DNA of 64,000 nucleotides from Eledone cirrhosa. Taxonomy: Eukaryota. Below, one piece after another: positions 2,886 through 59,852 of this stretch. Under the pieces are notes generated by a model. The model did no database searches. It was not told the origin of the DNA and worked only from the letters and a program-made list of their open reading frames with translations. The stretch lies in the NCBI GenBank assembly GCA_964016885.1, contig OZ024741.1, forward strand, positions 38,440,001 to 38,504,000, in the 5' to 3' direction. The position numbers were made by a program, and so were the translations under genes. The first letter of the stretch is position 1, and each line of letters starts with the position of its first letter.

Positions 2886-3493
2886 CACCATATATGTATG
2901 TATGCTTATATATATATGCATGTATGCATTTATGCATGTATGTATGTATGTATGTATGTATGCATATATGTATTTATTTAGGTGTGCATGTATGTATGTA
3001 TGTGTGTTTGTATGCATGTAAGTGTATATATATGTACGTACGTATGCAAATGTGTATATGTATACATGTATGTATGCATGTATGTATGCATATGCATGCA
3101 TACACACACGGATATATGTATACATACATACACATATACATACATACATATATAAAGTCATACATTCTTACTTAAATACATACATAGATACATAATTAGG
3201 ACATTACAAATACAAACCATTAATGGAACTGTAAGAATATGTAGAGGATTCCAGAAATTTATCATATAATTGTATATATACATGTATAGATATATAAATA
3301 TATATTCATGCACATATTGAAAGATTGAAGAATAACATGGTCGGCTGTACAAAAAGGGTTTTATTCCTCGTATTAATAATTGTTTCATTGATCAAAGGCC
3401 ACTAATCAGTCGAAGTTGCGTCACTCGACCTTAAATACAGTGTGTGTCTCTGATAGATTCATCGAGCTCAAAACATAAAAAAGAAGTATATAG

Positions 3494-6400
3494 ACATCCA
3501 TAGCACAGCCATACACACATACACACACCCATACACTAATATATATAATGACATCCATACAGACAGACATACAGACATCCATACATCCATACAGTAGTAT
3601 ATATAATGACATCCATAGCACAGTCATACACACATCTACACATCCATACAATAGTATATATAATGACATCCATAGCACAGCCATACACACATCCATACAT
3701 CCATACAGTAGTATATATAATGACATCCATAGCACAGCCATACACACATCCATACATCCATACAATAGTCTATATAATGACATCCATAGCACAGTCATAC
3801 ACACATCCATACATCCATACAGTAGTATATATAATGACATCCATAGGACAGTCATACACACATCCATACATCCATACAGTAGTATATATAATGACATCCA
3901 AAGCACAGCCATACATACATCCATACATCCATACAGGAGTATATATAATGACATCCATAGCACAGCCATACACACATCCATACATCCATACAGTAGTATA
4001 TATAATGACATCCATAGCACAGCCATACACAAATCTACACATACATACAGTAGTATATATAATGACATCATAGCACAGACATACACACATCCTTACATCC
4101 ATACAGTAGTATATATAATGACATCATAGCACAGCCATACACACATCCATACATCCATACAGTAGTATATATAATGACATCCATAGCACAGCCATACACA
4201 CATCCATACATCCTTACAGTAGTATATAGAATGACATCCATAGCACAGTCATACACACATCCATACATCCATACAGTAGTATCTATATAATGAAATACAT
4301 AGCACAGTCATACACACATCTATACATCCATACAGTAGTATCTATAATGACGTCCATAGCACAGTCATACACACATCTATACATACATACAGTAGTATAT
4401 ATAATGACATCCATAGCACTGCCCTACACACATCTATACATCCATACAGTAGTCTATATAATGACATCCATAGCACTGTCATACACACATCCATACATCC
4501 ATACAGTAGTATATATAATGACATCCATACCACAGTCATACACACATCCATACATCCATACAGTAGTCTATATAATGACATCCATACCACAGCCATACAC
4601 ACATCTATACATCCATACAGTTGTATATATAATGACATCCATAGCACAGCCATACACACATCTATACATCCATACACTAGTATATAGAATGACATACATA
4701 GCACAGTCATACACACATATATACATCCATACAGTAGTATATATAATGACATCCATAGCACAGTCATACACACATCCATACATACATACAGTAGTATATA
4801 TAATGCCATCCATAGCACAGTCATACACACATCCATCCATACATACAGTAGTATATATAATGACATCCATAGCACAGTCATACATACATCTATACATCCA
4901 TACAGTAGTCTATATAATGACATCCATACCACAGCCATACACACATACATACATACATACATACAGTAGTATATAGAATGACATCCATAGCACAGTCATA
5001 CACACATCCTTACATCCATACAGTAGTATATATAATGACATCCATACCACAGCCATACACACATCCATACATCCATACAGTAGTCTATATAATGACATAC
5101 ATAGCACAGTCATACACACATCTATACATCCATACAGTAGTATATATAATGACATCCATACCACAGACATACACACATCTATACATCCATACAGTAGTAT
5201 ATATAATGACATACATAGCACAGTCATACACACATCCATACATCCATGCACTAGTATATATAATGACGTCCATAGCACAGTCATACGCACATGCATACAT
5301 CCATACAGTAGTATATATAATGACATCCATAGCACAGCCATACACACATCTATACATACATACAGTAGTATATATAATGACATCCATCGCACAGTCATAC
5401 ACACATCTATACATCCATACAGTAGTATATATAATGACATCCATACCACAGCCATACACACATCCATACATCCATACTGTAGTATATATAATGACATCCA
5501 TAGCACAGTCATACACACGTTTATACATCCATACAGCAGTATATATAATGACATCAATAGAACAGCCATACACACATCTATACATCCATACAGTAGTATA
5601 TATAATGACATCCATAGCACAGCCATACACACATCCATACATCCATAGACTAGTATATATAATGACATCCATACCACAGCCATACACACATCTATACATC
5701 CATAGAGTAGTATATATAATGACATCCATAGCACAGCCATACACACATCTATACATCCATACAGTAGTATATATAATGATATCCATAGCACAGCCATACA
5801 CACATCCATACATCCATACACTAGTATATATAATGACATCCATACCACAGCCATACACACATCTATACATCCATACAGTAGTATATATAATTACATCCAT
5901 CGCACAGCCATACACACATCTATACATCCATACAGTAGTATATATAATGACATCCATACCACAGTCATACACACATCAATACCTCCATACAGTAGTATAT
6001 ATAATGACATCCATAGCACAGTCATACACACATCCATACATCCATACAGTAGTATATATAATTACATCCATAGCACTGTTATACACACATCCATACATCC
6101 ATACAGTAGTATATATAAAGACATCCATAGCACTGCCATACACACATCCACACATCCATACAGTAGTATATATAATGACATCCATAGCACTGTTATACAC
6201 ACATACATACATCCATACTGTAGTATATATAATGACATCCATAGCACAGTCATACACACATCCATACATACTGTAGTATATATAATGACATCCATAGCAC
6301 AGTCATACACACATCCATACATCCATACAGTAGTATATATAATGACATCCATAGCACAGCCATACACACATCTATACATCCATACAGTAGTATATATAAT

Positions 6401-9400
6401 GACATCCATAGCACAGCCATACCCACATCTATACATCCATACAGTAGTCTATATAATGACATCCATAGCACAGCCATACACACATCTATACATCCATACA
6501 GTAGTATATATAATGACATCCATAGCACAGTCATACACACATCCATACATACATACAGTAGTATATATAATGACATCCATACCACAGTCATACACACATC
6601 CATACATCCATACAGTAGTATATATAATGACATCCATAGCACAGTCATACACACATCCATACATCCATACTGTAGTATATATAATGACATCCATAGCACA
6701 GCCATACACACATCCATACATCCATATAGTAGTATATATAATGACATCCATAGCACAGCCATACACACATCCATATATCTATACATCCATATAGTAATAT
6801 ATATAATGACATCCATACCACAGCCATACACACATCAATACATACATACAGTAGTCTATATAATGACATCCATAGCACAGCCATACACACATCTATACAT
6901 CCATACAGTAGTTTATATAATGACGTCCATAGCACAGCCATACACACATCCATACATCCATACAGTAGTCTATATAATGACATCCATAGCACAGACATAC
7001 ACTCATCCGTACGTCCATACTGTAGTATATATAATGACATCCATAGCACATCCATACACACATGCATACATCCATACAGTAGTATATATAATGACATCCA
7101 TAGCACAGCCATACACACATCCATACATCCATACATCCATACACTATTAAATATAATGACATCCATAGCACAGCCATACACACATCCATACATCCATACA
7201 GTAGTATATATAATGACATCCGTACCACAGTCATACACACATCTATACATCGATACAGTAGTATATATAATGACATCCATAGCACAGCCATACACACATC
7301 CATACATACATACAGTAGTATATATAATGACATCCATAGCACAGCCATACACACATCCATACATCCATACAGTAGTATATATAATGACATCCATAGCACA
7401 GTCATACACACATCCATACATCCATAAAGTAGTATATATAATGACATCCATAGCACAGCCATACACACATCTTTACATCCATACAGTAGTCTATATAATG
7501 ACATCCATAGCACAGACATACACACATCCATACATCCATACTGTAGTATATATAATGACATCCATAGCACATCCATACACACATCCATACATCCATACAG
7601 TAGTATATATAATGACATCCATAGCACAGTCATACACACATCCATACATCCATACAGTAGTATATATAATGACATCCATAGCACAGCCATACACACATCT
7701 TTAGATCCATACAGTAGTATATAGAATGACATCCATAGCACAGCCATACACACATCCATACATCAATACAGTAGTCTATATAATGACATCCATACCACAG
7801 CCATACACACATCTATACATCGATACAGTAGTATATATAATGACATCCATAGCACAGCCATACACACATACATACATACATACAGTAGTATATATAATGG
7901 CATCCATAGCACAGCCATACACACATCTATACATCCATACAGTAGTATATATAATGCCATACATAGCTCAGTCATACACACAGCTATACATCCATACAGT
8001 AGTATATATAATGACATCATAGCACAGCCATACACACATCCTTACATCCATACAGTAGTATATATAATGACATCCATAGCACAGCCATAAACACATCCAT
8101 ACATCCATACAGTAGTATATATAATGACATCCATACCACAGCCATACACACATCCATACATCCATACAGTAGTATATATAATGACATCCATACCACAGTC
8201 ATACACACATCTATACATCCATACAGTAGTATATATAATGACATCCATAGCACAGTCATACACACATCCACACATCCATACACTAATGTATATAATGACG
8301 TCCATAGCACTGCCATACACACATCTATACATCCATACAGTAGTATATATAATGACATCCATAGCACAGCCATACACACATCTATATATCCATACAGTAG
8401 TATATATAATGACATCCATAGCACAGTCATACACACATCCACACATCCATACAGTAGTATATATAATGACATACATAGCACAGTCATACACACATCTATA
8501 CATCCATATAGTAGTATATATAATGACATCCATACCACAGTCATACACAAATCTATACATACATACAGTAGTATATATAATGACATCCATAGCACAGTCA
8601 TACACACATCCACACATCCATACACCCATCCATACATCCATAAAGTCGTATATATAATGACATCCATAGCACAGTCTTACACACATACATACATCCATAC
8701 AGTAGTATATATAATGACATCCATACCACAGTCATACACACATCCATACATCCATACAGTAGTATATATAATGACATCCATACCACAGTTATACACACAT
8801 CTATACATACATACAGTAGTATATATAATGAAATCCATACCACAGCCATACACACATCCATACATCCATACACTAGTATATATAATGACATCATAGCACA
8901 GCCATACACACATCTATACATCCATACTGTAGTATATATAATGACATCCATAGCACAGCCATACACACATCTATACATCCATACAGTAGTATATATAATG
9001 ACATCCATACCACAGTCATACACACATCTATACATCCATACAGTAGTATATAGAATGACATCCATAGCACAGTCATACACACATCCACACATCCATACAC
9101 TAGTGTATATAATGACGTCCATAGCACAGCCATACACACATCTATACATCTATACAGTAGTATATATAATGACATCCATAGCACAGTCATACACACATCC
9201 ACACATCCATACAGTAGTATATATAATGACATACATAGCACAGCCATACACACATCCATACATCCATACAGTAGTATATATAATGACATCCATACCACAG
9301 TCATACGCACATCTATACATCCCTACAGTAGTATATATAATGACATCCATAGCACAGCCATACACACATCTATACATCCATACAGTAGTATATATAATGA

Positions 9401-12290
9401 CATCCATAGCACAGCCATACACACATCTATACATCCATACAGTAGTATATATAATGATATCCATAGCACAGCCATACACACATCTATACATCCATACAGT
9501 AGTATATATAATGACATCCATAGCACAGTCATACACACATCTATACATCCATACAGTAGTATATATAATGACATCCATAGCAGAGCCATACACACATCCA
9601 TACATACATACAGTAGTATATATAATGACATCCATACCACAGCCATACACTCGTCTATAGATCCATACAGTAGTATATATAATGACATCCATAGCACAGT
9701 CATACACACATCTATACATCCATACAATAGTATATATAATGCCATCCATACCACAGTCATACACACATCCATACATACATACAGTAGTATATATAATGAC
9801 ATCCATAGCACAGCCATACACACAGCTACACATCCATACAGTAGTATATATAATGACATCCATAGCACAGCCATACAAGCATCTATACATCCATACAGTA
9901 GTATATATAATGACATCCATAGTACAGCCATACACACATCTATACATCCATACTGTAGTATATATAATGACATCCATAGCACAGCCATACACACATCTAT
10001 ACATCCATACAGTAGTATATATAATGACATCCATAGCACAGCCATACACACATCCATACATCCATACAGTAGTATATATAATGACATCACATCACAATCA
10101 TACACACATCTATACATCCATACACTAGTATATATAATGACATCCATAGCACAGTCATACACACATCCATACATCCATACTGTAGTATATATATAATGAC
10201 ATCCATACCACAGCCATACACCCATCCATACATCCAGAAAGTGGTATATATAATGACATCCATAGCACAGCCATACACACATCCATACATACATACAGAA
10301 GTATATAGAATGACATTCATAGCACAGTCATACACACATCTATACATCCATACAGTAGTATATATAATGACTCCCATAGCACAGCCATACACACATCTAT
10401 ACATCCATACTGTAGTATATATAATGACATCCATAGCACAGCCATACACACATCCGTACATCCATACAGTAGTATATATAATGACATCCATAGCACAGCC
10501 ATAAACACATCTATACATCCATACAGTAGTATATATAATGACATCCATAGCACAGTCATACATACATACATACATACATCCATACTGTAGTATATATAAT
10601 GACACCCATAGCACAGGCATACACACATCTATACATCCATACTGTAGTATATATAATGACTTCCATAACACAGCCATACACTCATCTATACATCCATACA
10701 GTAGTATATATAATGACATCCATAGCACAGTCATACACACATACATACATCCATACAGTAGTATATATAATGACATCCATACCACAGTCATACACACATC
10801 TATACATCCATACAGTAGTATATATAATGACACCCATAGCACAGCCATACACACATTTATACATCCATACAGTAGTCTATATAATGACATCCATAGTACA
10901 GCCATACACACATCCATACATCTATACAGTAGTATATATAATGACATCCATAGCACAGCCATACACACATTTATACATCCATACACTAGTATATATAATG
11001 ACATCCATAGCACACTCATACACACATCTATACATCCATACAGTAGTAGATATAATGACATCCATAGCACAGCCATACACACATTTATACATCCATACAC
11101 TAGTATATATAATGACATCCATAGCACAGTCATACACACATCTATACATCCATACAGTAGTATATATAATGACATCCATAGCACAGCCATACACACATCA
11201 ATACCTCCATACAGTAGTATATATAACGACATCCATACCACAGTCATACACACATCTATACATCCATACAGTAGTATATATAATGACATCCATAGCACAG
11301 TCATACACACATCCATACATCCATACTGTAGTATATATAATGACATCCAAAGCACAGCCATACACATATCCATACATCCATACAGTAGTATATATAATGA
11401 CATCCATAGCACAGTCATACACACATCTATACATCCATACAGTAGTATATATAATGACATCCATAGCACAGCCATACACACATCCATACATCCATACAGT
11501 AGTATATATAATGACATCCATAGCACAGTCATACACACATCTATACATCCATACAGTAGTATATATAATGACATCCATAGCACAGTCATACACACATCTA
11601 TACATCCATACTGTAGTATATATAATGACATCCATAGAACAGTCATACACACATCTATACATCCATACTGTAGTATATATAATGACATCCATACCACAGT
11701 CATACACACATCTATACCTCCATACAGTAGTCTATATAATGACATCCATAGCACAGTCATACACACATCTATACATCCATACAGTAGTATATATAATGAC
11801 ATCCATACCACAGCCATACACACATCTATACATCCATACAGTAGTATATATAATGACATCCATAGCACAGCTATACACACATCTATACATCCATACAGTA
11901 GTCTATATAATGACATCCATACCACAGGCATACACACATCTATACATCCATACACTAGTATATATAATGACATCCATAGCACAGCCATACACACATCCAT
12001 ACATCCATACAGTAGTATATATAATGACATCCATAGCACAGTCATACACACATCCATACATCCATACTGTAGTATATATAATGACATCCAAAGCACAGCC
12101 ATACACATATCCATACATCCATACAGTAGTCTATATAATGACATCCATAGCACAGTCATACACACATCTATACATCCATACAGTAGTATATATAATGACA
12201 TCCATAGCACAGCCATACACACATCCATACATCCATACAGTAGTATATATAATGACATCCATAGCACTGCCATACACACATCCACACATA
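3494..12290. repeat. 57-bp minisatellite array, about 154 copies
   Basis: Consensus ATGACATCCATAGCACAGCCATACACACATCCATACATCCATACAGTAGTATATATA (57 nt = 19 codons), which explains the periodic MTSIAQPYTHPYIHTVVYI ORFs. Confidence 0.98.
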
Positions 12291-12597
12291 TAGACAGAGA
12301 CATTTACCATTTTGTCTAACTTCCCATGAAGTCTTCTTCTTACGTTTGAAAATAATTCTCTCTCCATTGATGAAAATATTAAAAAATAAAACCAAAAGAA
12401 CATACATAATAATTGTTTCTACTTTTGGCACAAGGCCAGCAATTAAATCTTTTACGATTAAGGTAATTATCGTCCGGCGACATTTTAGTCGCTCTCTCGA
12501 CATACAAGAGATGCCGGGTTCGATTCCCCGCAGGCATTTCTGTCCCTTTTCCGTCTCTATTAATGTACCTGATTGATTAAAGCTATTATTTATACTT

Positions 12598-12785
12598 TGG
12601 TTTGGCAGTATCGGTAGAGGGTCAGACGTCATGCTTTGCAAGCAAAGAGTTACAGCCGTTTATTTTCTGAGTTGAAATCCCACCGAGGTTAACTTTGCCT
12701 TTCATCCTTATGGGGTCGATAAAATAAAGTACCAGTAATGCACTGGGATAATTGCTGGCCTTGTGCCAAAAGTAGAAACAGTTAT
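12598..12785 (+). mobile_element. SINE family A
   Basis: A-box, B-box-like GAGTTGAAATCC, core and GTAGAAACA tail. Confidence 0.9.
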
Positions 12786-16507: not shown

Positions 16508-16942
16508 AGGGCGCTGGATTGGCAGTATCGGTAGAGAGTGGGACGCCATGCTTTGCAGCATGATCTGAGTTCAAATCCCGCTGAGGTTAACTTTGCCTTT
16601 CATCCTTACGGGGTCGATAAAATAAAGTACTAGTCACGCACTGGGATCGATTTAATTGACTTCCTCTCCCCCAAAATTGCTGGCCATGTGCCTATATAAG
16701 AAACCAATATTTAACTACAAAAAGGGCGGTGGATAGGCAGTATCGGTAGAGAGTCAGACACCATGGTTTGCAGCATAGAGTTACAGTCCTTTGCGGTCTG
16801 AGTTCAAAATCCCACCGAGGTTAACTTTGCTTTTCATCCTTACGGGATCGATAAAATAGGGCACCAGTAACATACTGGGGTCGATTTAATCGACTTTCCC
16901 ATCCCTCCAAATCCGCCATGTACCTATACTAGAAATCATTAT
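16508..16942 (+). mobile_element. Two tandem SINE family A copies
   Basis: Two heads near 16510 and 16725; AATATTTAACTACAAAAAGGGCG is duplicated at 16491 and 16706 (TSD-like). Confidence 0.9.
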
Positions 16943-17212
16943 CTAACTACAATACTTATATTTGCTAAAGCAGAAAGCCAGGAGGAAAGAGGACATTTGA
17001 AAATTTAGCCTCCTCAATGCAGAGAACTATAATAATTGTTGATAAGTATAAATAATAGATTTAATCAATCTGGTACAGGAATAGAGACGGAAAAGGGACA
17101 GAAATACTTGCAGGGAATCGAACCCCGCATCTCTTCTATGTCGAGAGAGTAAGTTTAAACATTAGGATAAAATGTCGCCGGACGATAATTACCTTCATTT
17201 TACAAGATTTAA
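16722..17212. repeat. Right arm of the composite inverted duplication
   Basis: Reverse complement of 12443-13080 without the 12598-12785 SINE. Confidence 0.85.
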
Positions 17213-21087: not shown

Positions 21088-21155
<68 letters not shown>

Positions 21156-21362
21156 TGATATTTCGCTCCTTATAACAGTCTTTCCTCTATCTCTGTTTGG
21201 TTGAGCACACCTCTCTGAGTGGTTTTGGGCTGCCCTTTCTAGCAGCTCGTCCCTCAGAGACCACTTGTTCACTGCTCTTAAACACGTTATGACCTCTCTC
21301 TCCCATGTGTAGCTGTACGGTCGCTTTAAATTCTCTTAGTGTTGTCTGAAATGTATAGCCTT

Positions 21363-21445
21363 ACACACGCTGATGAACTATGGGTTATTTCATTTCTGTC
21401 AACAACTTACTGGCGAAACAGATCTCTTTGGATCTGTACGTGTGT
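21363..21445 (+). ncRNA. Full type I hammerhead ribozyme
   Basis: ACACACG-CTGATGA-[stem II]-GAAA-CAGATC/GATCTG-TA-CGTGTGT: perfect 7-bp stem I, stable stem III, GUA cleavage triplet. The first stem II pair is an A-C mismatch. Confidence 0.85.
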
Positions 21446-21610
21446 TATACAGATATAGAGGTATGTATTTACACTTTAATTTATATTTTTAATTATCGTG
21501 TGTCTACTCTGCCTTTCATAGGTTATAGATTCCATACACTGGTGGTTTTTCCCTGTTTTATAGATAGCGCACTGTATCTCTCTCTAGTGTGTTACCTTTT
21601 CAACATATTG

Positions 21611-21748
<138 letters not shown>

Positions 21749-22073: not shown

Positions 22074-24519
22074 CGGGTGTGTATGATTGTGTATAGAAGA
22101 TTATATTAATAAAAGGAATTCCAACTTTGTCTGATTTACTCGTTTTATTTAAAATCCTTTAAAATTATAATGATATTACCGTCAAATATAGACCACAACA
22201 TCATGAAGAAGATCAACAACCTGGCTTCAAAATTCTACAACTCACTTACTGATAATGAAAGAGACTACATCACCAGTTTTGAGCCAAAACCCAGCAACTT
22301 TTGTGGCTTACCGAAAATTCATGTCAAAAGAAATCCAACTGGCAGTAAAAGAATAAAAAAGTGAGTATATTAAATTACTACACCCCAAAGACTTAAAACT
22401 TAGACCTATTATAGCTGGTCCAACATGCCCTACCCACCGTCTAAGCAATTTTGTTGACATTATTTTGAAACCACCATGTATTTCCATACCCAGTTTCATC
22501 CCAGATGATATCGACTTCCTGTCCCAACTTCCCAAAACCACGGAAACGAATTTACTTCTACTTAGTTTTGATGTGGTAAGCATTTACACCAACATTATAC
22601 ATGATTTAGGAATAAAGGTGGTTAAATACTGGGTGGAAAAACAGAGAGTAGTGATACCCACCTGATTCACAGTGCCATTTATATTAGACGCAGTCAGACT
22701 TATTCTGGAAAACAACATATTCTTCGTCAATGGAAAGAATTACATCCAAATTAGAGGCACAGCGATGGGGACGAAGTTTGTTCCCGTTTACGCGAACTCT
22801 GTAATGGGATAATTAGAACAACAACTCAACCAAGGGATAGAGGAAAAATATAGAACTGAATTTAGAAAGTACATTGAAAAGTCTTGGAAGAGATACTTTG
22901 ACGACTGTTTCATCATCTGGACAGAATCTCCAGATACTCTGGATGAGTTCAATATCCTTCTGAATAACCTACACCCATCTCTCCAATTTACAAAAGAGAT
23001 GAGTAGTACCAAATTACCATTCCTAGATATAATGGTAATCAAAAACGACACCACCATTACCACGGATATATACTATAAACACACAGACACCCATCAATAT
23101 CTGAATTTTAAGCCGTGCCATCCACCTCATATAAAACGCAACATCCCATACTGCCTAGCCAAAAGAATTTGTACCATTGTAGAAGATACCAGGAACAAAC
23201 GCCTAACAGAACTGAGAGAATTTTTGCTCAAACAAAAATACCCACCTCTACTTATAGAAAATGGCATACACTGGGCTATAAAAATACCTATACAACAACT
23301 TAGGTCAACCCAAGGAAGAAGAAACCAAGAACTGGTCATACCATTTATAATGACACACAACCCATGTCACCAGAATATCTTTAACACCGCTAAAGCAAAC
23401 CTACCGATCATTGCTCAAAGTAATGAATTAAAAAGTTTAATCACAGACCGATCTTTGACTCTTAGTAAAAGACAGCCGAAAAATTTGAATCAATTACTAA
23501 CAAAGGCAAAGTTTTCCCTTAATAACAAAGACCAATCATTAACTGTATCTAAATGCAATGATAGTCGATGTGGCACATGTCAATCCATACACACTGGTCA
23601 ATATATGAAAACAAAAACTGGAAAAAATATTCCCGAAACCAAATATGAACTGCAAAAGCAGAAATCTAATTTACTGCATTAAATGCCCGAATTATGAAGA
23701 ACTATATGTCGGTCAATCTGGAAATGCACTATCGGAACGTGCACGGGTGCACCGACAGCAAATCAGAGACCCAAATGTCCGTCAGATACCCCTGAGTAAC
23801 CATCTAGCAACATGTGGTCAGAAAATATTTATAATATTTCCATTCTACAAACTACACAGCCCAAGTGAAATCAAGAGAAAAATTAAAGAAAAGAATTTTA
23901 TTGATGAATTCCAACCCAAGCTAAATGAAAATAATAATGCTTAGGGGTATTACTTCTACTATGACTACGCCTATAACCATGTCGACTGCCACCACTAACA
24001 ACAATAACAATAGTAATAATAAAAGTGATGTTGATGTTGATGATTACTGAAGATTTTTTATAAAAACCCTAGTAAATCCTATTTTCATCATTTCTAAAAA
24101 TAGCAAAACAATTGAAGCTTTGGATAGGGTCAAATAGATGTCGTTATACATGCTCAATCAGACCTGATGCCTAAACTAATCAGCTTTAGTAATCTAGTGA
24201 AACCACACAGCGATTGGTCGAAATACAGTTTGCAAAACTTAGCATTCTGTAGCCCCTTTTTACTGTATATAAGGCTCAGATTTTAGCCATCTCATTACAG
24301 TTGAATATTGACAACTTGACTGTCACCACTGAATATGAACCTGCGATTGCGAAAGCATGAAACTACTTGTTCAATTAACACTTAACATTTAATGTTCTAC
24401 CATAATATTTCATTCTAATATCATTATAATTTTAAAGGATTGTAAATAAAACGAGTAAATCAGACAAAGTTGGAATTCCTTTTATTAATATAATCTTCTA
24501 TACACAATAATACACACCC

Positions 24520-24522
<3 letters not shown>
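22074..24522 (+). mobile_element. 5'-truncated Neptune-type Penelope-like element with inverted terminal repeat
   Basis: 22074-22178 is the reverse complement of 24418-24522. It encloses the decayed RT-GIY-YIG ORF and is flanked by (TA)n. Confidence 0.93.
22179..23944 (+). pseudogene. Disrupted PLE reverse transcriptase-GIY-YIG endonuclease ORF
   Basis: GLPKIH, LRPII, SFDVVSIYTNI, QIRGTAMG, RYFDDC (22891), LPFLD, CHP, Cys linker CNDSRCGTC, then NLIYCIKC...YVGQSG...R...H...PKLN. At least 2 stops and 2 frameshifts. Confidence 0.93.
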
Positions 24523-25503: not shown

Positions 25504-25570
25504 TTTTATCTGATGAAAACACAAATATTATTGCATGATGATATTTGTTTTTGAAATGCGCATAATAAAA
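25504..25570 (+). ncRNA. Minimal type I hammerhead ribozyme
   Basis: TTTTAT-CTGATGA-[CAAATATTA/TGATATTTG stem II]-GAA-ATGCGCAT (palindrome)-A-ATAAAA. Confidence 0.8.
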
Positions 25571-28760: not shown

Positions 28761-29042
28761 GATAAATATATATATATATTTTTTTCTCTCTCTCGTCTAC
28801 GATTTCACAGAACTTATGTTTACCGAATTCACGGACTAGACCCCTTTTTCCTCCCGTTAGACCTGTGCGAAATTCATTCCTTGCTCACATTTCAACCAGG
28901 TTTGATGGTTTTTATTCTCTCTCGTTCACGATTTCACCGAACTTATATTCAGGGAAATTTGGGACTTGACTCGTTCTTCCTCACTTTTCGTTGCTTCACC
29001 GTCTTTGTTTGTTTACACTCTCGCTGTTCCCTTTATTTACAT

Positions 29043-29144
29043 GTCCCAACGTCTTTCTTTAGCCGTTGCTCGCACCAACCGGAGGTATATGGTCTTTAAA
29101 GCGAAGAAATACCGATGATGCTTGGAAGAACACTGATGAAGGAC
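29043..29144 (+). ncRNA. Candidate non-circularly permuted hammerhead, extended form
   Basis: GGTAT-A-TGGTCTT...GAA-ATACC...AAGAACA-CTGATGA, plus GTCC/GGAC, CAACG/CGTTG, TCGC/GCGA and CCAA/TTGG. Confidence 0.65.
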
Positions 29145-29151
29145 CACTTTA

Positions 29152-29187
<36 letters not shown>

Positions 29188-30175: not shown

Positions 30176-30220
<45 letters not shown>

Positions 30221-30271
30221 CTCTTCCTTCTATGTTGTTTACTTGTCTCACTCGCTTTACGCGTTTCACTT

Positions 30272-30373
30272 GTCCCAATAGATTATTTTAGTTATTGCTC
30301 GCACCAACCTGAGGTATATGATTTTTAATGCGATGAAATACCAATGATCGTTGGCAAATCACTGATGAGGGAC
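30272..30373 (+). ncRNA. Candidate non-circularly permuted hammerhead, extended form
   Basis: GGTAT-A-TGATTT (30313-24), GAA-ATACC (30335-42), AAATCA-CTGATGA (30356-68), GTCCC/GGGAC, TCGC/GCGA, CCAAC/GTTGG. Confidence 0.75.
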
Positions 30374-30431
30374 TAATTTTATAATATGTAATCCATGTGC
30401 AACCATGCAGTATTCTTCTCCCCATGTTTTT

Positions 30432-30503
<72 letters not shown>

Positions 30504-41930: not shown

Positions 41931-42546
41931 ATCGTTTGGTAAATCACTGATGAGGGACTCACTTTATAACATGTTATCCATGTGCAACCAGCAGTATTCT
42001 TCTCACCCATATTTTTCATATATTTACCCAAACTGCAATTCTGTGTTTCTCTCTTTCTCTCTTACTGCTCCCTCGTTCTCTCTGTTTCTCTTACTTTCTT
42101 TCGTCCCCTCTGCCATGTCAGTTAACTCTTTCTCTCTACTGACCTCTTCCTCGCACTCCCACTCACTCAGTCCCTATTTCTCCCCTTCTTTCTTCCTCCC
42201 GTTCGCTGGGAAAACGGTTTTCATTCTTTCTTACACCGGATTCACTAGCGAAAGGTCTGTTTTCTGACTTGCTCATATATTCACACAGCTTATGCTGAAA
42301 GAATATCTATGTTGCTTGTGTTTATTTCCATCTTCGGTTAGCTTTCCCCTGTGTTGTTTACTTGTCTAACTCGCTTTACGCATTTCTATCGTCCTAATAA
42401 CTTATTTTAGTTATTATCGCTCCAACGTGAGGTATATGATTTTTAATGCGATGAAATACCCATGATCGTTTGGTAAATCACTGATGAGTGACTCATTTTA
42501 TAACATGTTATCCATGTGCAACCAAGAGTATTCTTCTCACCCATAT

Positions 42547-42552
<6 letters not shown>
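41931..42552 (+). repeat. Partial tandem unit, 534-bp period, carrying the permuted hammerhead
   Basis: CTGATGA at 41947 and 42481 with ~90 bp of shared context. Confidence 0.85.
42391..42492 (+). ncRNA. Candidate non-circularly permuted hammerhead, extended form
   Basis: GGTAT-A-TGATTT, GAA-ATACC, AAATCA-CTGATGA; hairpin TAATAAC/GTTATTA; TCGC/GCGA. Confidence 0.7.
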
Positions 42553-42598
<46 letters not shown>

Positions 42599-48305: not shown

Positions 48306-48924
48306 TAAGAAACACACATCTCTTAGATATGTGTCATATGCTAATGTATAAAATGTATAAAATGTCATGCTTAAGCGAGCATCAAATGATTTGGAGCGTG
48401 AATTTGTCTTACATGAAAAGTTGTACAAACAGCATATTTTCTATAGCTGCACCTATTTTCCGTCACACAGTGAATCGGAAATGATGTTTATCTAGGTAAT
48501 CTAGACATAAGGTCATATATTATTGCTGTAGGGTAGAATATAGTGGATTATATTGACATGGGGAGTGATGAAAGACAAAGTCCCTCTTTTGTGTGATTTG
48601 AACTCAGGGCGTAACTAAATAACGAGACAGATTTAATCATTTGTCGGTCTATCGAATCAGCCACCGTCATCATCTTTCCTAATTAGAAATATTAGCTTCT
48701 AATTTTAGGCTCAGAACCAGCAATTTTGATGGCCTGGGTGGGCTAAGTCAATTAGTTCGAACAAGTATTGACTGTTACTATATTATATATTTTATGGATC
48801 CCAAAAGGATAAAGAAGGAAAGTTGACTTCTGCGGGATTTGAAACCAGAACATAAATATATATATATATAGCTTAAAATGGAGTGGGAATAAGAAGAAAG
48901 CAAGAACGGGGGGGGGGGGGGGGG

Positions 48925-49028
48925 ATTCCTCATCAGTTGTCTACTGGGGGTCTCGGATATTTCTACGCTTTAAAGACAAGATATCTACTGCCCAGAGCGT
49001 CAATAACTGGATACGTTATTGGGGAAAC
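48925..49028 (-). ncRNA. Candidate non-circularly permuted hammerhead (AUC triplet)
   Basis: Reverse complement GATAT-C-TTGTCT...GAA-ATATC...AGACAA-CTGATGA. Confidence 0.7.
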
Positions 49029-49622
49029 GGAGGAGGGAGGGACGGAAAAAAAAGGGAAGAGAAGAGAGAAAACAGTGAAAAAACAACAACAATGCGACCA
49101 ACTGTGAAGGCGAGAGAAAAGACACACGTCTGACCCCAGTGAGTTGTAAGTGAGAAAAGGACTACTAGAGGGTGGGGCGAGGTAAACAATGAGGTGGCAA
49201 GTAGAGAGAGGATGAGTGTAAGTGAGAGCTACCTTAAGCTACCTTAAATAACAACTACACAGCCATTTCTATTCTCCATATATTTTATCATGTTTTCGCT
49301 GTGACCCTTCTTCTCTCCCCTTCTACCTACCTATTTCGCTACTATTTACTCTCACCCCTCTTTCTTCCTCACCCTTTCTCCCTCTCACTTTCACTCATCC
49401 TCTCTCTGTCTGCCACCTCATTGTTTCCCTCGCCTGACCCTATAGTAGTCCTTTTCTCACTTAAAACTCGCTGGGGTCAGACGTGTGTCCTTTCTCTCGC
49501 CCACACAGTCGAGTGGTTTTGGATTTTCTTACCGTAAGTTGCTCGCACATTGCTCGGTTTGTTGTTTTTTGTCGCTGTTTTCTCTCTTCTCTTCCCTTTT
49601 GTTTTCCTTCCCTTCCTCCTCC

Positions 49623-49728
49623 GTTTTCCCAATAACTTATCCAGTTATTGACGCTCTGGGCGGTAGATATATTGTCTTTAAAGCGTAGAAATATCCGACA
49701 CCCCCAGTAGACAACTGATGAGGAAAAC
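49623..49728 (+). ncRNA. Candidate non-circularly permuted hammerhead, best-paired copy
   Basis: GTTTTCC/GGAAAAC, CAATAAC/GTTATTG, ACGC/GCGT, CTGGG/CCCAG, GATAT/ATATC and TTGTCT/AGACAA are all perfect. GAAA at 49688, CTGATGA at 49715. Confidence 0.78.
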
Positions 49729-49809
49729 TCTCCCCGTTCTTGCTTTCTTCTTATTCCCACTCCATTTTAAGCTACCTTAAAAGCAACTACACAGCCATTT
49801 CTACTCTCC

Positions 49810-49859
<50 letters not shown>

Positions 49860-50192
49860 CAGACAGACAGCAATACATAGACAATGGTCCTCAAACTATA
49901 GTCAAGGTCTAATACGCATGACGCACTTGATAACCTTACAGCTGTATAAAAACAAATACACACATACTTTTTCCTATATCTTCAATACTTATCTCTTCTT
50001 CAAAAACACTTCAACATAGTAGCCTCAGGCTGACCCCCCCCCCCCCCCCCTACACCTTTTTTTCAAGATGCTGACTAACAGCCCTTGCTTCCTCTCCTGT
50101 CTAACGTTTTCCTCGTTTTCGTTTTTTTTCTTACTCACGTCAATCTTCCTAATACTTCTCCCTTCTAAACATCCTCTTTTTTCTCTCATATT

Positions 50193-54523: not shown

Positions 54524-54573
54524 TGCATCTGATGACAGAGACGTGTTTTCGTCTTGAAACCGCTGGTAATGCA
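54524..54573 (+). ncRNA. Type I hammerhead ribozyme
   Basis: TGCAT-CTGATGA-[GAGACG/CGTCTT]-GAA-ACC GCT GGT-A-ATGCA; GUA triplet. Confidence 0.75.
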
Positions 54574-54647
54574 GTTATGTCAAACTGTTAAAATAGATAC
54601 CCAACACACACGCACACACAAGCGCACACGTACACACATACACACAC

Positions 54648-58915: not shown

Positions 58916-59440
58916 CACACACACACATACACACATATATATATAAATAAGCGTACACACAACATACATGTTTAGATATATGTAAAATAAATGTATCGGA
59001 TATACCTAGGAAGACATAACATATTGTAATATTGTACATGTTTAGCGGAATGAAGATATATAGGGTATGTTCGGTTGTATACTCACGTAATCTCCCGAAG
59101 AAGTAGAACAGCATCTGGTTTAAGTATTCCTCAACAGTAAAGGGGATTTGTTATTATGTAGTTGATGCATATGTGGACAATCTTCATATAAATATGCATA
59201 GATTCTATTGCCCGATAAAAAAATCTCTCTCTGGTGTTGTGCTACAAAAAAAGTATCCATTTTATTTCCACAACAACAACCCATTTTTCTACTGAAGCTA
59301 TGGTTCCTATGATAGGCCCCATACTCATCACAGGGTCGATTTTGAGGCATTATGTTTTTAGCCAGATATCTTTTCTGTCGTCAAGACTTTAGTCGCCTTT
59401 TACGCCTTGCTGGGATACTGTTTATTATTAAGTTACATTA

Positions 59441-59852
59441 GGGTGGTAGATTGGCAGTATCGTTAGAGCGTCAAACACCATGTTTTGCAACATCGAGTTA
59501 TGGCCCTTTATGATCTGAATTCAAATCCCGCCAAGGTTAACTTTGTCTTTCATCCTTACGGGGTCGATAAAATAAAGCACCAGTCACATACTGGGATCGA
59601 TATAATCGACTTTCCTCTCCCCAAAATGACTGGCCTTGTGCCTATACTAGAAATCATTATTAAGGTGGATTGGCAGTATCGGTAGAGGGTCGGACGCCAT
59701 GATTTGATGGATAGTGTTACGGCCCTTTCCATTCTGAGTTCAAATCCCGCCCAGGCTAACTTTGCCTTTCATCCTTACGGGATCGATAAAATAAAGTACC
59801 AGTAATGCACTGGGTAATTGCTGGCCTTGTGCCAAAAGTCGAAACAATTATT
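59441..59852 (+). mobile_element. SINE family A head-to-tail dimer
   Basis: Two full copies; TTATTAAGTTACATTA flanks the pair. Confidence 0.9.

Follow-up and report, generated by a model that had tools for sequence, protein, structure and literature searches.

Hammerhead ribozymes have been divided into three blocks, C, G and S, which were defined and assumed to be uninterruptible in the available text of Eckert et al. (2023; PMC10085705). The same source describes non-circular orders of these blocks, including type-SGC, which cleaves at 0.007-0.19 per minute, and type-CSG, with two examples. The 583 examples of the type-SGC class come from metatranscriptomes, and the genomes of known organisms yielded just one GCS candidate. 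A pistol-like pseudoknot hammerhead, in which helix II is swapped for a distant upstream pairing, is also described and cleaves fast (Zhan et al. 2024; PMC11300833). Among mobile elements, animal non-LTR retrozymes (PMC7229834; Li et al. 2026, 10.64898/2026.07.22.740005) are non-coding tandems with one hammerhead per unit, and retrozymes together with the pseudo-LTR hammerheads of Penelope-like elements (PMC4209133) occur as dispersed monomers to multimers with a Penelope-like insertion structure. In the accessible portions of these sources, such hammerheads are of type I (C-G-S) only. A non-LTR retrozyme is also expected to yield monomer RNA in linear and circular form, and a non-autonomous Penelope-like element to have sequence in common with the pseudo-LTR of an autonomous RT/GIY-YIG element. 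Penelope-like insertions are marked by partial tandems, 5′ truncation, adjacent inversion, an optional tail and microsatellite targets (PMC8557442), and by internal initiation of reverse transcription, again with an optional tail (PMC11167929).

The stretch of DNA analysed here (the window) is 64 kb of the Eledone cirrhosa genome. A first-pass annotation, made from its sequence, had claimed five copies of a hammerhead-like motif (29043+, 30272+, 42391+, 48925- and 49623+) in which a UH site is followed by GAAA and then by CTGATGA, that is, in the order S-G-C. Each copy was found where it had been placed, and the box order was seen in 5/5. The fully paired copy, of subfamily A, occupies 49623-49728 (+), and 40/40 scored genome matches (the best 40 of 2064 candidates) have 94-100% identity to it. 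It opens with the 5′ strand of a closing helix, Pa (49623-49629, partner 49722-49728), and a hairpin, HP, with a 7-bp stem (49630-49650) that is also present in the minimum-energy fold. The 5′ strand of helix Pb (49651-49654, partner 49683-49686), read as the displaced stem II (10.x) strand, and the 5′ strand of helix Pc (49656-49660, partner 49703-49707), which bridges stems I and II, come next. Block S (49666-49677) comprises the stem III 5′ strand (49666-49670), H17 (49671) and the stem I 5′ strand (49672-49677), with the predicted cut 3′ of H17. Within 49678-49695, a linker (49678-49682), the Pb 3′ strand and the unpaired 49687 lead into block G, with GAAA at 49688-49691 and the stem III 3′ strand running to 49695. 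Within 49703-49728, the Pc 3′ strand and the stem I 3′ strand (49709-49714) precede CUGAUGA (49715-49721) and the Pa 3′ strand (49722-49728), which makes up a split block C.

The second subfamily A copy (48923-49028, minus strand) lies in the inverted arm of the same insertion and has C at H17. The subfamily B copy (30272-30373, +) is within a 5′-truncated insertion (30217-30433), a B-like copy (42391-42492, +) is terminal in a partial tandem (41931-42559), and the subfamily C copy (29043-29144, +) is within an insertion at 28780-29161. When the window was searched by BLAST with three of the copies, the five and a sixth were recovered; the latter (41931-41958, +) is 5′-truncated to the stem I 3′ strand, CUGAUGA and the Pa strand, and lies upstream of the 42391 copy, at a distance of one unit (about 534 bp). 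The cut sites predicted earlier, 3′ of 49671 and 3′ of 30318, fell at the same positions on re-parsing, and the remaining ones are predicted 3′ of 48980 (minus strand), 42436 and 29089. All helix pairs that had been cited are present in the sequence (e.g. stem III GGTAT/ATACC vs GATAT/ATATC). The further claim that all pairings are kept in the five copies holds for 49623+ and fails for three: stem I of 29043+ is broken, with just 2 consecutive pairs beside the core, and the closing helix Pa is damaged in 42391+ and 48925-. Family members outside the window are mostly intact.

CTGATGA alone is not enriched in the window (13 seen vs 10.8 expected). A descriptor requiring UH, GAAA and CUGANGA in order, with pairing of stems I and III, matched 4 times in the window, always at a true copy, and never in any of 30 shuffles; shuffled controls of a 400-kb genome sample likewise gave 0 in each of 10. 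The copy at 29043+ escapes the descriptor because its stem I has decayed. The window copies are real, not a chance arrangement.

The suggestion of at least two diverged subfamilies was borne out, as the family splits into at least nine in the host genome (3.0 Gb; 2996 Mb). Searches with one copy as query each returned 40 scored matches out of longer lists of first-look candidates (A 2064, B 1510, C 1834, D 1648, E 546, H 1758, K 906 and J 950), totals that are not copy numbers and may overlap between subfamilies. Subfamilies D, E, G, H, J and K were found as bystanders in loci fetched for others. Both J (L214:700-880, minus strand; L027, L240-L257) and K (L159:1215-1365, +; L226-L239) lie outside the window and have a GUC site, CUGACGA and an 8-bp hairpin. 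Of 40 stretches of 10 kb sampled without bias, 2 contained copies of the A-H type, 3 in total, which extrapolates to a genome total of roughly 10^4 (about 22,000; Poisson range about 4,600-66,000). For subfamily E, the best 40 of 546 candidates are all full-length and 100% identical, so this subfamily spread recently. The whole core pattern is kept in 195/216 non-redundant A-H copies, which were selected as top matches.

Relatives were also sought elsewhere. Variants of E- and C-like units, compared with L136:1330-1930, occur in sequencing runs X14 (organism G) and X15 (organism F), and the family therefore occurs under at least two organism labels. In all, 15 runs matched, 10 of them at a share of just 0.04 that is probably due to the simple repeat of the query, and two runs guessed to be RNA (X1, X6) yielded 0 unit-like records. 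Exact-pattern scans of viral contigs, metagenome contigs and prokaryote genomes found no relatives; they say little on range, since few animal genomes were covered and the patterns were tight.

In 9/9 subfamilies the order from the 5′ end is Pa, HP, Pb, Pc, stem III strand, H17 and stem I strand, followed by a 4-5-nt linker, Pb, GAAA, stem III, Pc, stem I, CUGANGA and Pa. The hammerhead core is present (C3-U4-G5-A6-N7-G8-A9, G12-A13-A14, the A15.1-U16.1 pair and H17). Its letters are invariant across 8 A-H representatives and kept in J/K, with variation only at N7 (U/C) and H17 (A/C). The NUH rule invoked in the first pass is obeyed, H17 never being G in the 12 representatives parsed. The six helices had been described as covarying, and an automatic alignment of 8 natural A-H representatives (30 pairs, 240 cells) agrees: 98.3% of cells are paired, against 25-46% in slid-partner controls, and 16/30 pairs have double-sided changes, with at least one in each helix. 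No shuffle (0/500) matched the observed pairing and covariation, in a comparison where the sequences are related (8 lineages plus J/K), kinship alone can beat shuffles by the tool's own warning, and the structure was read from the sequences later scored. One-sided pair changes in the alignment are G-U on the motif strand. Double-sided changes affect 5/6 pairs of stem I and 2/5 of stem III, both with 100% of cells paired, as well as 3/4 pairs of Pc; 3/4 pairs of Pb are invariant throughout A-H. The two unpaired Pa cells are an effect of the automatic alignment, in which subfamily A is out of register by one column.

Judged from their sequences, J and K are a stronger structural test than the A-H alignment. 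Most of their helix sequences differ from A-H, yet all six helices are kept; both have a GUC site and C at N7, and double-sided changes distinguish J from K in Pa and stem III. Pb has 5 bp in J/K and stands directly against GAAA, with a G-C pair (C11.1) at its base. In A-H, Pb usually has a mismatch at 10.1/11.1, and Pa has a canonical G-C at its base. There is precedent for tolerance at this place, since helix II of an axolotl retrozyme is reported to carry a U-U mismatch at its base (PMC7229834). The ribozyme is more conserved than the remaining unit in 21/21 subfamily pairs, the remainder being often near shuffled identity. Among nested minimum-energy folds, those of A, B, C, D, H and K contain both Pa and HP, and those of C, E and J contain Pc along with stem III; competing hairpins appear in those of A, B, D and H, by a method that does not model pseudoknots.

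Direct pairing between the strand after A9 and the strand before G12 amounts to 0-2 bp in 12 representatives, short of an ordinary stem II. Each of these two strands pairs instead with a separate upstream segment, giving Pa (4-7 bp by comparison) and Pb (4-5 bp), both covarying. The first-pass description of a plain stem II replaced by a multi-helix junction, here Pa, HP and Pb, therefore fits, as does that of S-G-C as a non-circular permutation, the order having held up on re-analysis. The annotation had also pointed out that such permutations were reported recently; the S-G-C order itself is not new, because it was published as type-SGC and shown to cleave (PMC10085705).

With type-SGC (HRIMA-1 and SGC variants; PMC10085705) the family shares the S-G-C order, an identical core, a 4-5-nt linker from stem I to stem II and a helix, here Pc, that bridges stems I and II. 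The strand after CUGANGA completes stem II in type-SGC, whereas here the completing strand is 5′ of the cut site; the partner of the bridging helix is likewise in the 3′ tail there and 5′ of the cut site here. Unlike in type-SGC, CUGANGA continues into an extra helix, Pa, next to HP. The resemblance to type-CSG runs through the stem II strand, bridging strand, stem III strand and cut site and, further 3′, through the stem I strand, a short U/A linker, the stem II strand and GAAA. Linker and strand order agree piece for piece with the available SGC and CSG alignments. Type-CSG is opened after stem III; here the same cycle would be opened between A9 and 10.1 and shut by Pa. The pistol-like hammerhead (PMC11300833) has a loop pseudoknot on one extra stem-loop, whereas the family here is non-circular, with a predicted four-way junction and two extra helices.

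The prediction that standard hammerhead searches would miss the motif was accurate. Rfam at the gathering score found 0 hammerheads in the window, a weak test as the type I motifs of the window were missed too. There was no hammerhead among 21 matches for 48800-49900 at E<=5, and three J/K loci gave 0 Rfam matches. The type-SGC search conditions, as applied from the RNAMotif files of PMC10085705 (a block C without interruption, and a stem II that joins CGAAA with CUGAUGA(U)G), were passed by 0/273 A-H matches and 0/32 J/K stretches, 305 copies together, the 273 counting overlapping loci twice. By its predicted fold the family resembles the type-SGC hammerhead and yet falls outside the type as defined. 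In the openly searchable literature, neither a core-opened form nor an animal genome with a non-circular hammerhead came to light, and an earlier description is possible. Weinberg 2015 is said to be the discovery paper of the pseudoknot-containing hammerhead and to treat hammerhead variants, which Lunse 2017 reportedly describes as well. In its accessible text, PMC13725137 (2026) cites for variants only Weinberg 2015, Eckert 2023 and Forgia 2023 (PMC10162972), and the accessible portions of PMC6765202, PMC6155905 and 10.64898/2026.09.16.752053 hold no relevant description. What appears new, with no description found, is the split core and the retroelement setting, type-SGC being from metatranscriptomes and the present family in the retroelements of an animal genome.

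In the reading preferred here, the RNA would be the non-circular SGC/CSG/GCS cycle opened between A9 and 10.1, within the catalytic core, since Pb and Pc are wired as in CSG and Pb abuts GAAA in J/K. Pb would be stem II, its 10.x strand supplied from upstream of the cleavage site. A9 would run into Pa stacked on HP, and the core, Pa, HP and Pb would form a four-way junction. A different stacking of an equally active ribozyme is a real rival, because A-H mostly have a mismatch at the base of Pb and G-C at that of Pa. Pa would then be the true stem II, a type II-like end clamp in which A9 is often followed by one unpaired base, and block G would be split, with GAAA delivered by Pb stacked on HP. 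The unpaired base does occur, in C, D, E, G and H, and can be compared with that after A9 in the Penelope-type hammerheads of PMC4209133 and with the SGC of PMC10085705, as far as these sources are available. In J/K, however, it is Pb that adjoins GAAA directly, with C11.1, and the 4-5-nt linker and Pc put Pb at the place of stem II in SGC (PMC10085705). On this evidence the alternative stacking is unlikely.

That the family RNA cleaves at all is likely. The opposing reading, in which a hammerhead-derived fold would not cut alone, or only with the protein of the element, and would be retained because it binds protein or clamps the ends for mobilisation, is rather improbable. The 10.1/11.1 mismatch and the AUA or AUC site in A-H would suit it, as would the competing hairpins of the nested folds, the protein dependence of the anole element's hammerhead (PMC11167929) and the weak activity of Penelope-type minimal hammerheads (PMC4209133), as given in the available text of both. 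Yet no variation is seen at G5, G8, G12 or their neighbours, and the changes at N7 and H17 are of the kind that a cutting ribozyme tolerates, with G absent from H17 in the representatives parsed. A very doubtful third reading treats the RNA as a normal type-SGC ribozyme whose direct stem II is very short and whose 5′ helices serve as an accessory or switching domain. J/K can form 2 bp after one unpaired base, and hammerheads whose stem II is one base pair long cleave (PMC3088659, in its accessible part). Against this, direct stem II has 0-1 bp in 9/10 parsed A-H copies, the 2 bp of the tenth belonging to a decayed copy, vs the longer covarying Pa and Pb. A chance arrangement within a repeat, multiplied by copying, is practically dismissed: the copies are related by descent, for which reason copy number is not independent evidence, but double-sided changes occur in all six helices though the flanking unit is often near shuffled identity, the fold is identical in J/K, and the descriptor gives 0 in shuffles.

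Each motif lies in a non-coding, pyrimidine-rich (67-71%) unit, with a tandem spacing of 459-849 bp within subfamilies and a longest ATG frame of 20-56 codons in six unit consensuses. Insertions are variably 5′-truncated, often with an inverted arm, and 39/42 inverted neighbour pairs are in divergent orientation (overlapping loci counted twice). The whole subfamily A insertion of the window (48869-49820) consists of an inverted, 5′-truncated arm (about 48869-49228, minus strand) joined to a partial tandem in forward orientation (49234-49820). The insertion borders on (TA)n at either outer end, one arm stopping about 50 nt past the ribozyme and the other about 90 nt. Among 207 non-redundant copies having enough downstream sequence, 55 were binned as running into the next unit, some of them, chiefly 16 of H, probably through alignment over-run. 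A microsatellite stands at the end of 141 of the 152 terminal copies, with each subfamily favouring one to three distances of about 20-150 nt past A9; because copies were retrieved through the ribozyme, any that stop at the cut site would be under-counted. Most subfamilies, including K, share a short A/C-rich motif that lies downstream of the ribozyme by 30-80 nt; in the window it is at 49783-49795, near the preferred 3′ ends. It is possibly a binding or initiation site for the mobilising protein.

These units carry the Penelope-like insertion marks listed in PMC8557442 and PMC11167929, as far as available. Non-coding tandems with one hammerhead per unit are shared with animal non-LTR retrozymes, and dispersal as monomers to multimers is shared with retrozymes and Penelope-like pseudo-LTR hammerheads; the hammerhead is permuted S-G-C here vs type I in those described. 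Stem III is often weak and cleavage dimer-dependent in known retrozymes, as far as described, whereas stem III has a full 5-8 bp here. Unit length exceeds the typical 150-450 bp of retrozymes and falls inside the 51-972 bp given in the available text of 10.64898/2026.07.22.740005. The carrier is most likely a retrozyme-like, non-autonomous Penelope-like retroelement. Sequence, pairing, covariation and copy structure of the family are established.

The genome holds many Penelope-like RT/GIY-YIG remnants. No autonomous element with the motif as its own terminal repeat was present among 46 stretches with Penelope-like ORFs in the fetched loci and the window (about 1 of 2996 Mb). Two loci with the motif near a Penelope-like ORF and no flagged microsatellite were rejected as a partner, being insertions into or beside remnants. 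The window itself contains a broken Penelope-like element at about 22100-24520 (+), with RT, a Cys-motif linker and GIY-YIG, which we take to be Neptune-like. An inverted piece of its own 3′ end lies at 22106-22176, and a 92%-identical copy, in locus L109, has a Pfam GIY-YIG match. The 3′ region of the window's element has no copy of the S-G-C motif and no intact hammerhead; a stretch similar to the A/C-rich motif (about 24193-24210) is lost in the L109 copy.

Other repeats of the window include a sequence at 21148-21613 (+) that was suspected to be a second S-G-C family and rejected as a classical type I (C-G-S) hammerhead. Its motif (about 21365-21443) has a long stem III and is missed at the Rfam gathering score, and the repeat is abundant (1447 first-look candidates), in tandems and inversions. 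Minimal Penelope-type type I hammerheads with a palindromic stem III are at about 25505-25570 (+) and 54524-54585 (+). Many type I families exist in the genome, with 95 C-G-S descriptor matches in 225 loci and the window. A tandem array of about 8.8 kb (3473-12297) has a period near 57 bp and about 91% identity between offsets. A SINE-like dispersed repeat of about 200 bp occurs at 540-745 and about 20 other places, for example 12590-12785, 16515-17032 and 59422-59851.

Taken as a whole, the explanation held to be probable is that of a core-opened non-circular hammerhead in a Penelope-like/retrozyme carrier, which would cut tandem transcripts into end-clamped monomers and be mobilised in trans. 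Cleavage, stacking, circles and the identity of the mobilising protein are what we infer from the family's sequences. Read-through transcripts of tandem units would be cut once per unit, and given the full-length stem III a monomer should suffice for cutting. The two ends of the monomer would stay paired through about 18-24 bp in stem III, Pa, Pb and Pc; since the cut ends re-pair through these four helices, ligation to a circle would be favoured. A Penelope-like RT/GIY-YIG protein acting in trans may copy circles or uncut multimers into microsatellites, with insertion starting 20-150 nt downstream of the ribozyme. For the anole Penelope-like element, cleavage is protein-dependent and dispensable for insertion in vitro according to the available text of PMC11167929, and circles are therefore not required for insertions. 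The more specific layout, beyond the six block orders, of a core-opened four-way junction that is active as a protein-free monomer, clamps its ends through the helices and circularises efficiently, is advanced tentatively as a serious possibility.

Non-circular hammerheads have so far been a few hundred metatranscriptome sequences with unnamed hosts, and the link between CUGANGA and stem II was presumed unbreakable in the available text of PMC10085705. If true, the present explanation would extend the topologies known for the hammerhead fold by thousands of copies and nine diverged lineages in a tractable animal genome, and natural variation would be available for structure work on a four-way-junction hammerhead. 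It would make testable why Penelope-type elements keep hammerheads, by setting monomer cutting with end-clamping against dimer-only cutting. Retrozyme surveys using type I descriptors under-count such elements. The motif would be the first non-circularly permuted ribozyme shown to drive a large animal retroelement family, and may be a sign of a whole layer of such elements overlooked by type I-based scans.
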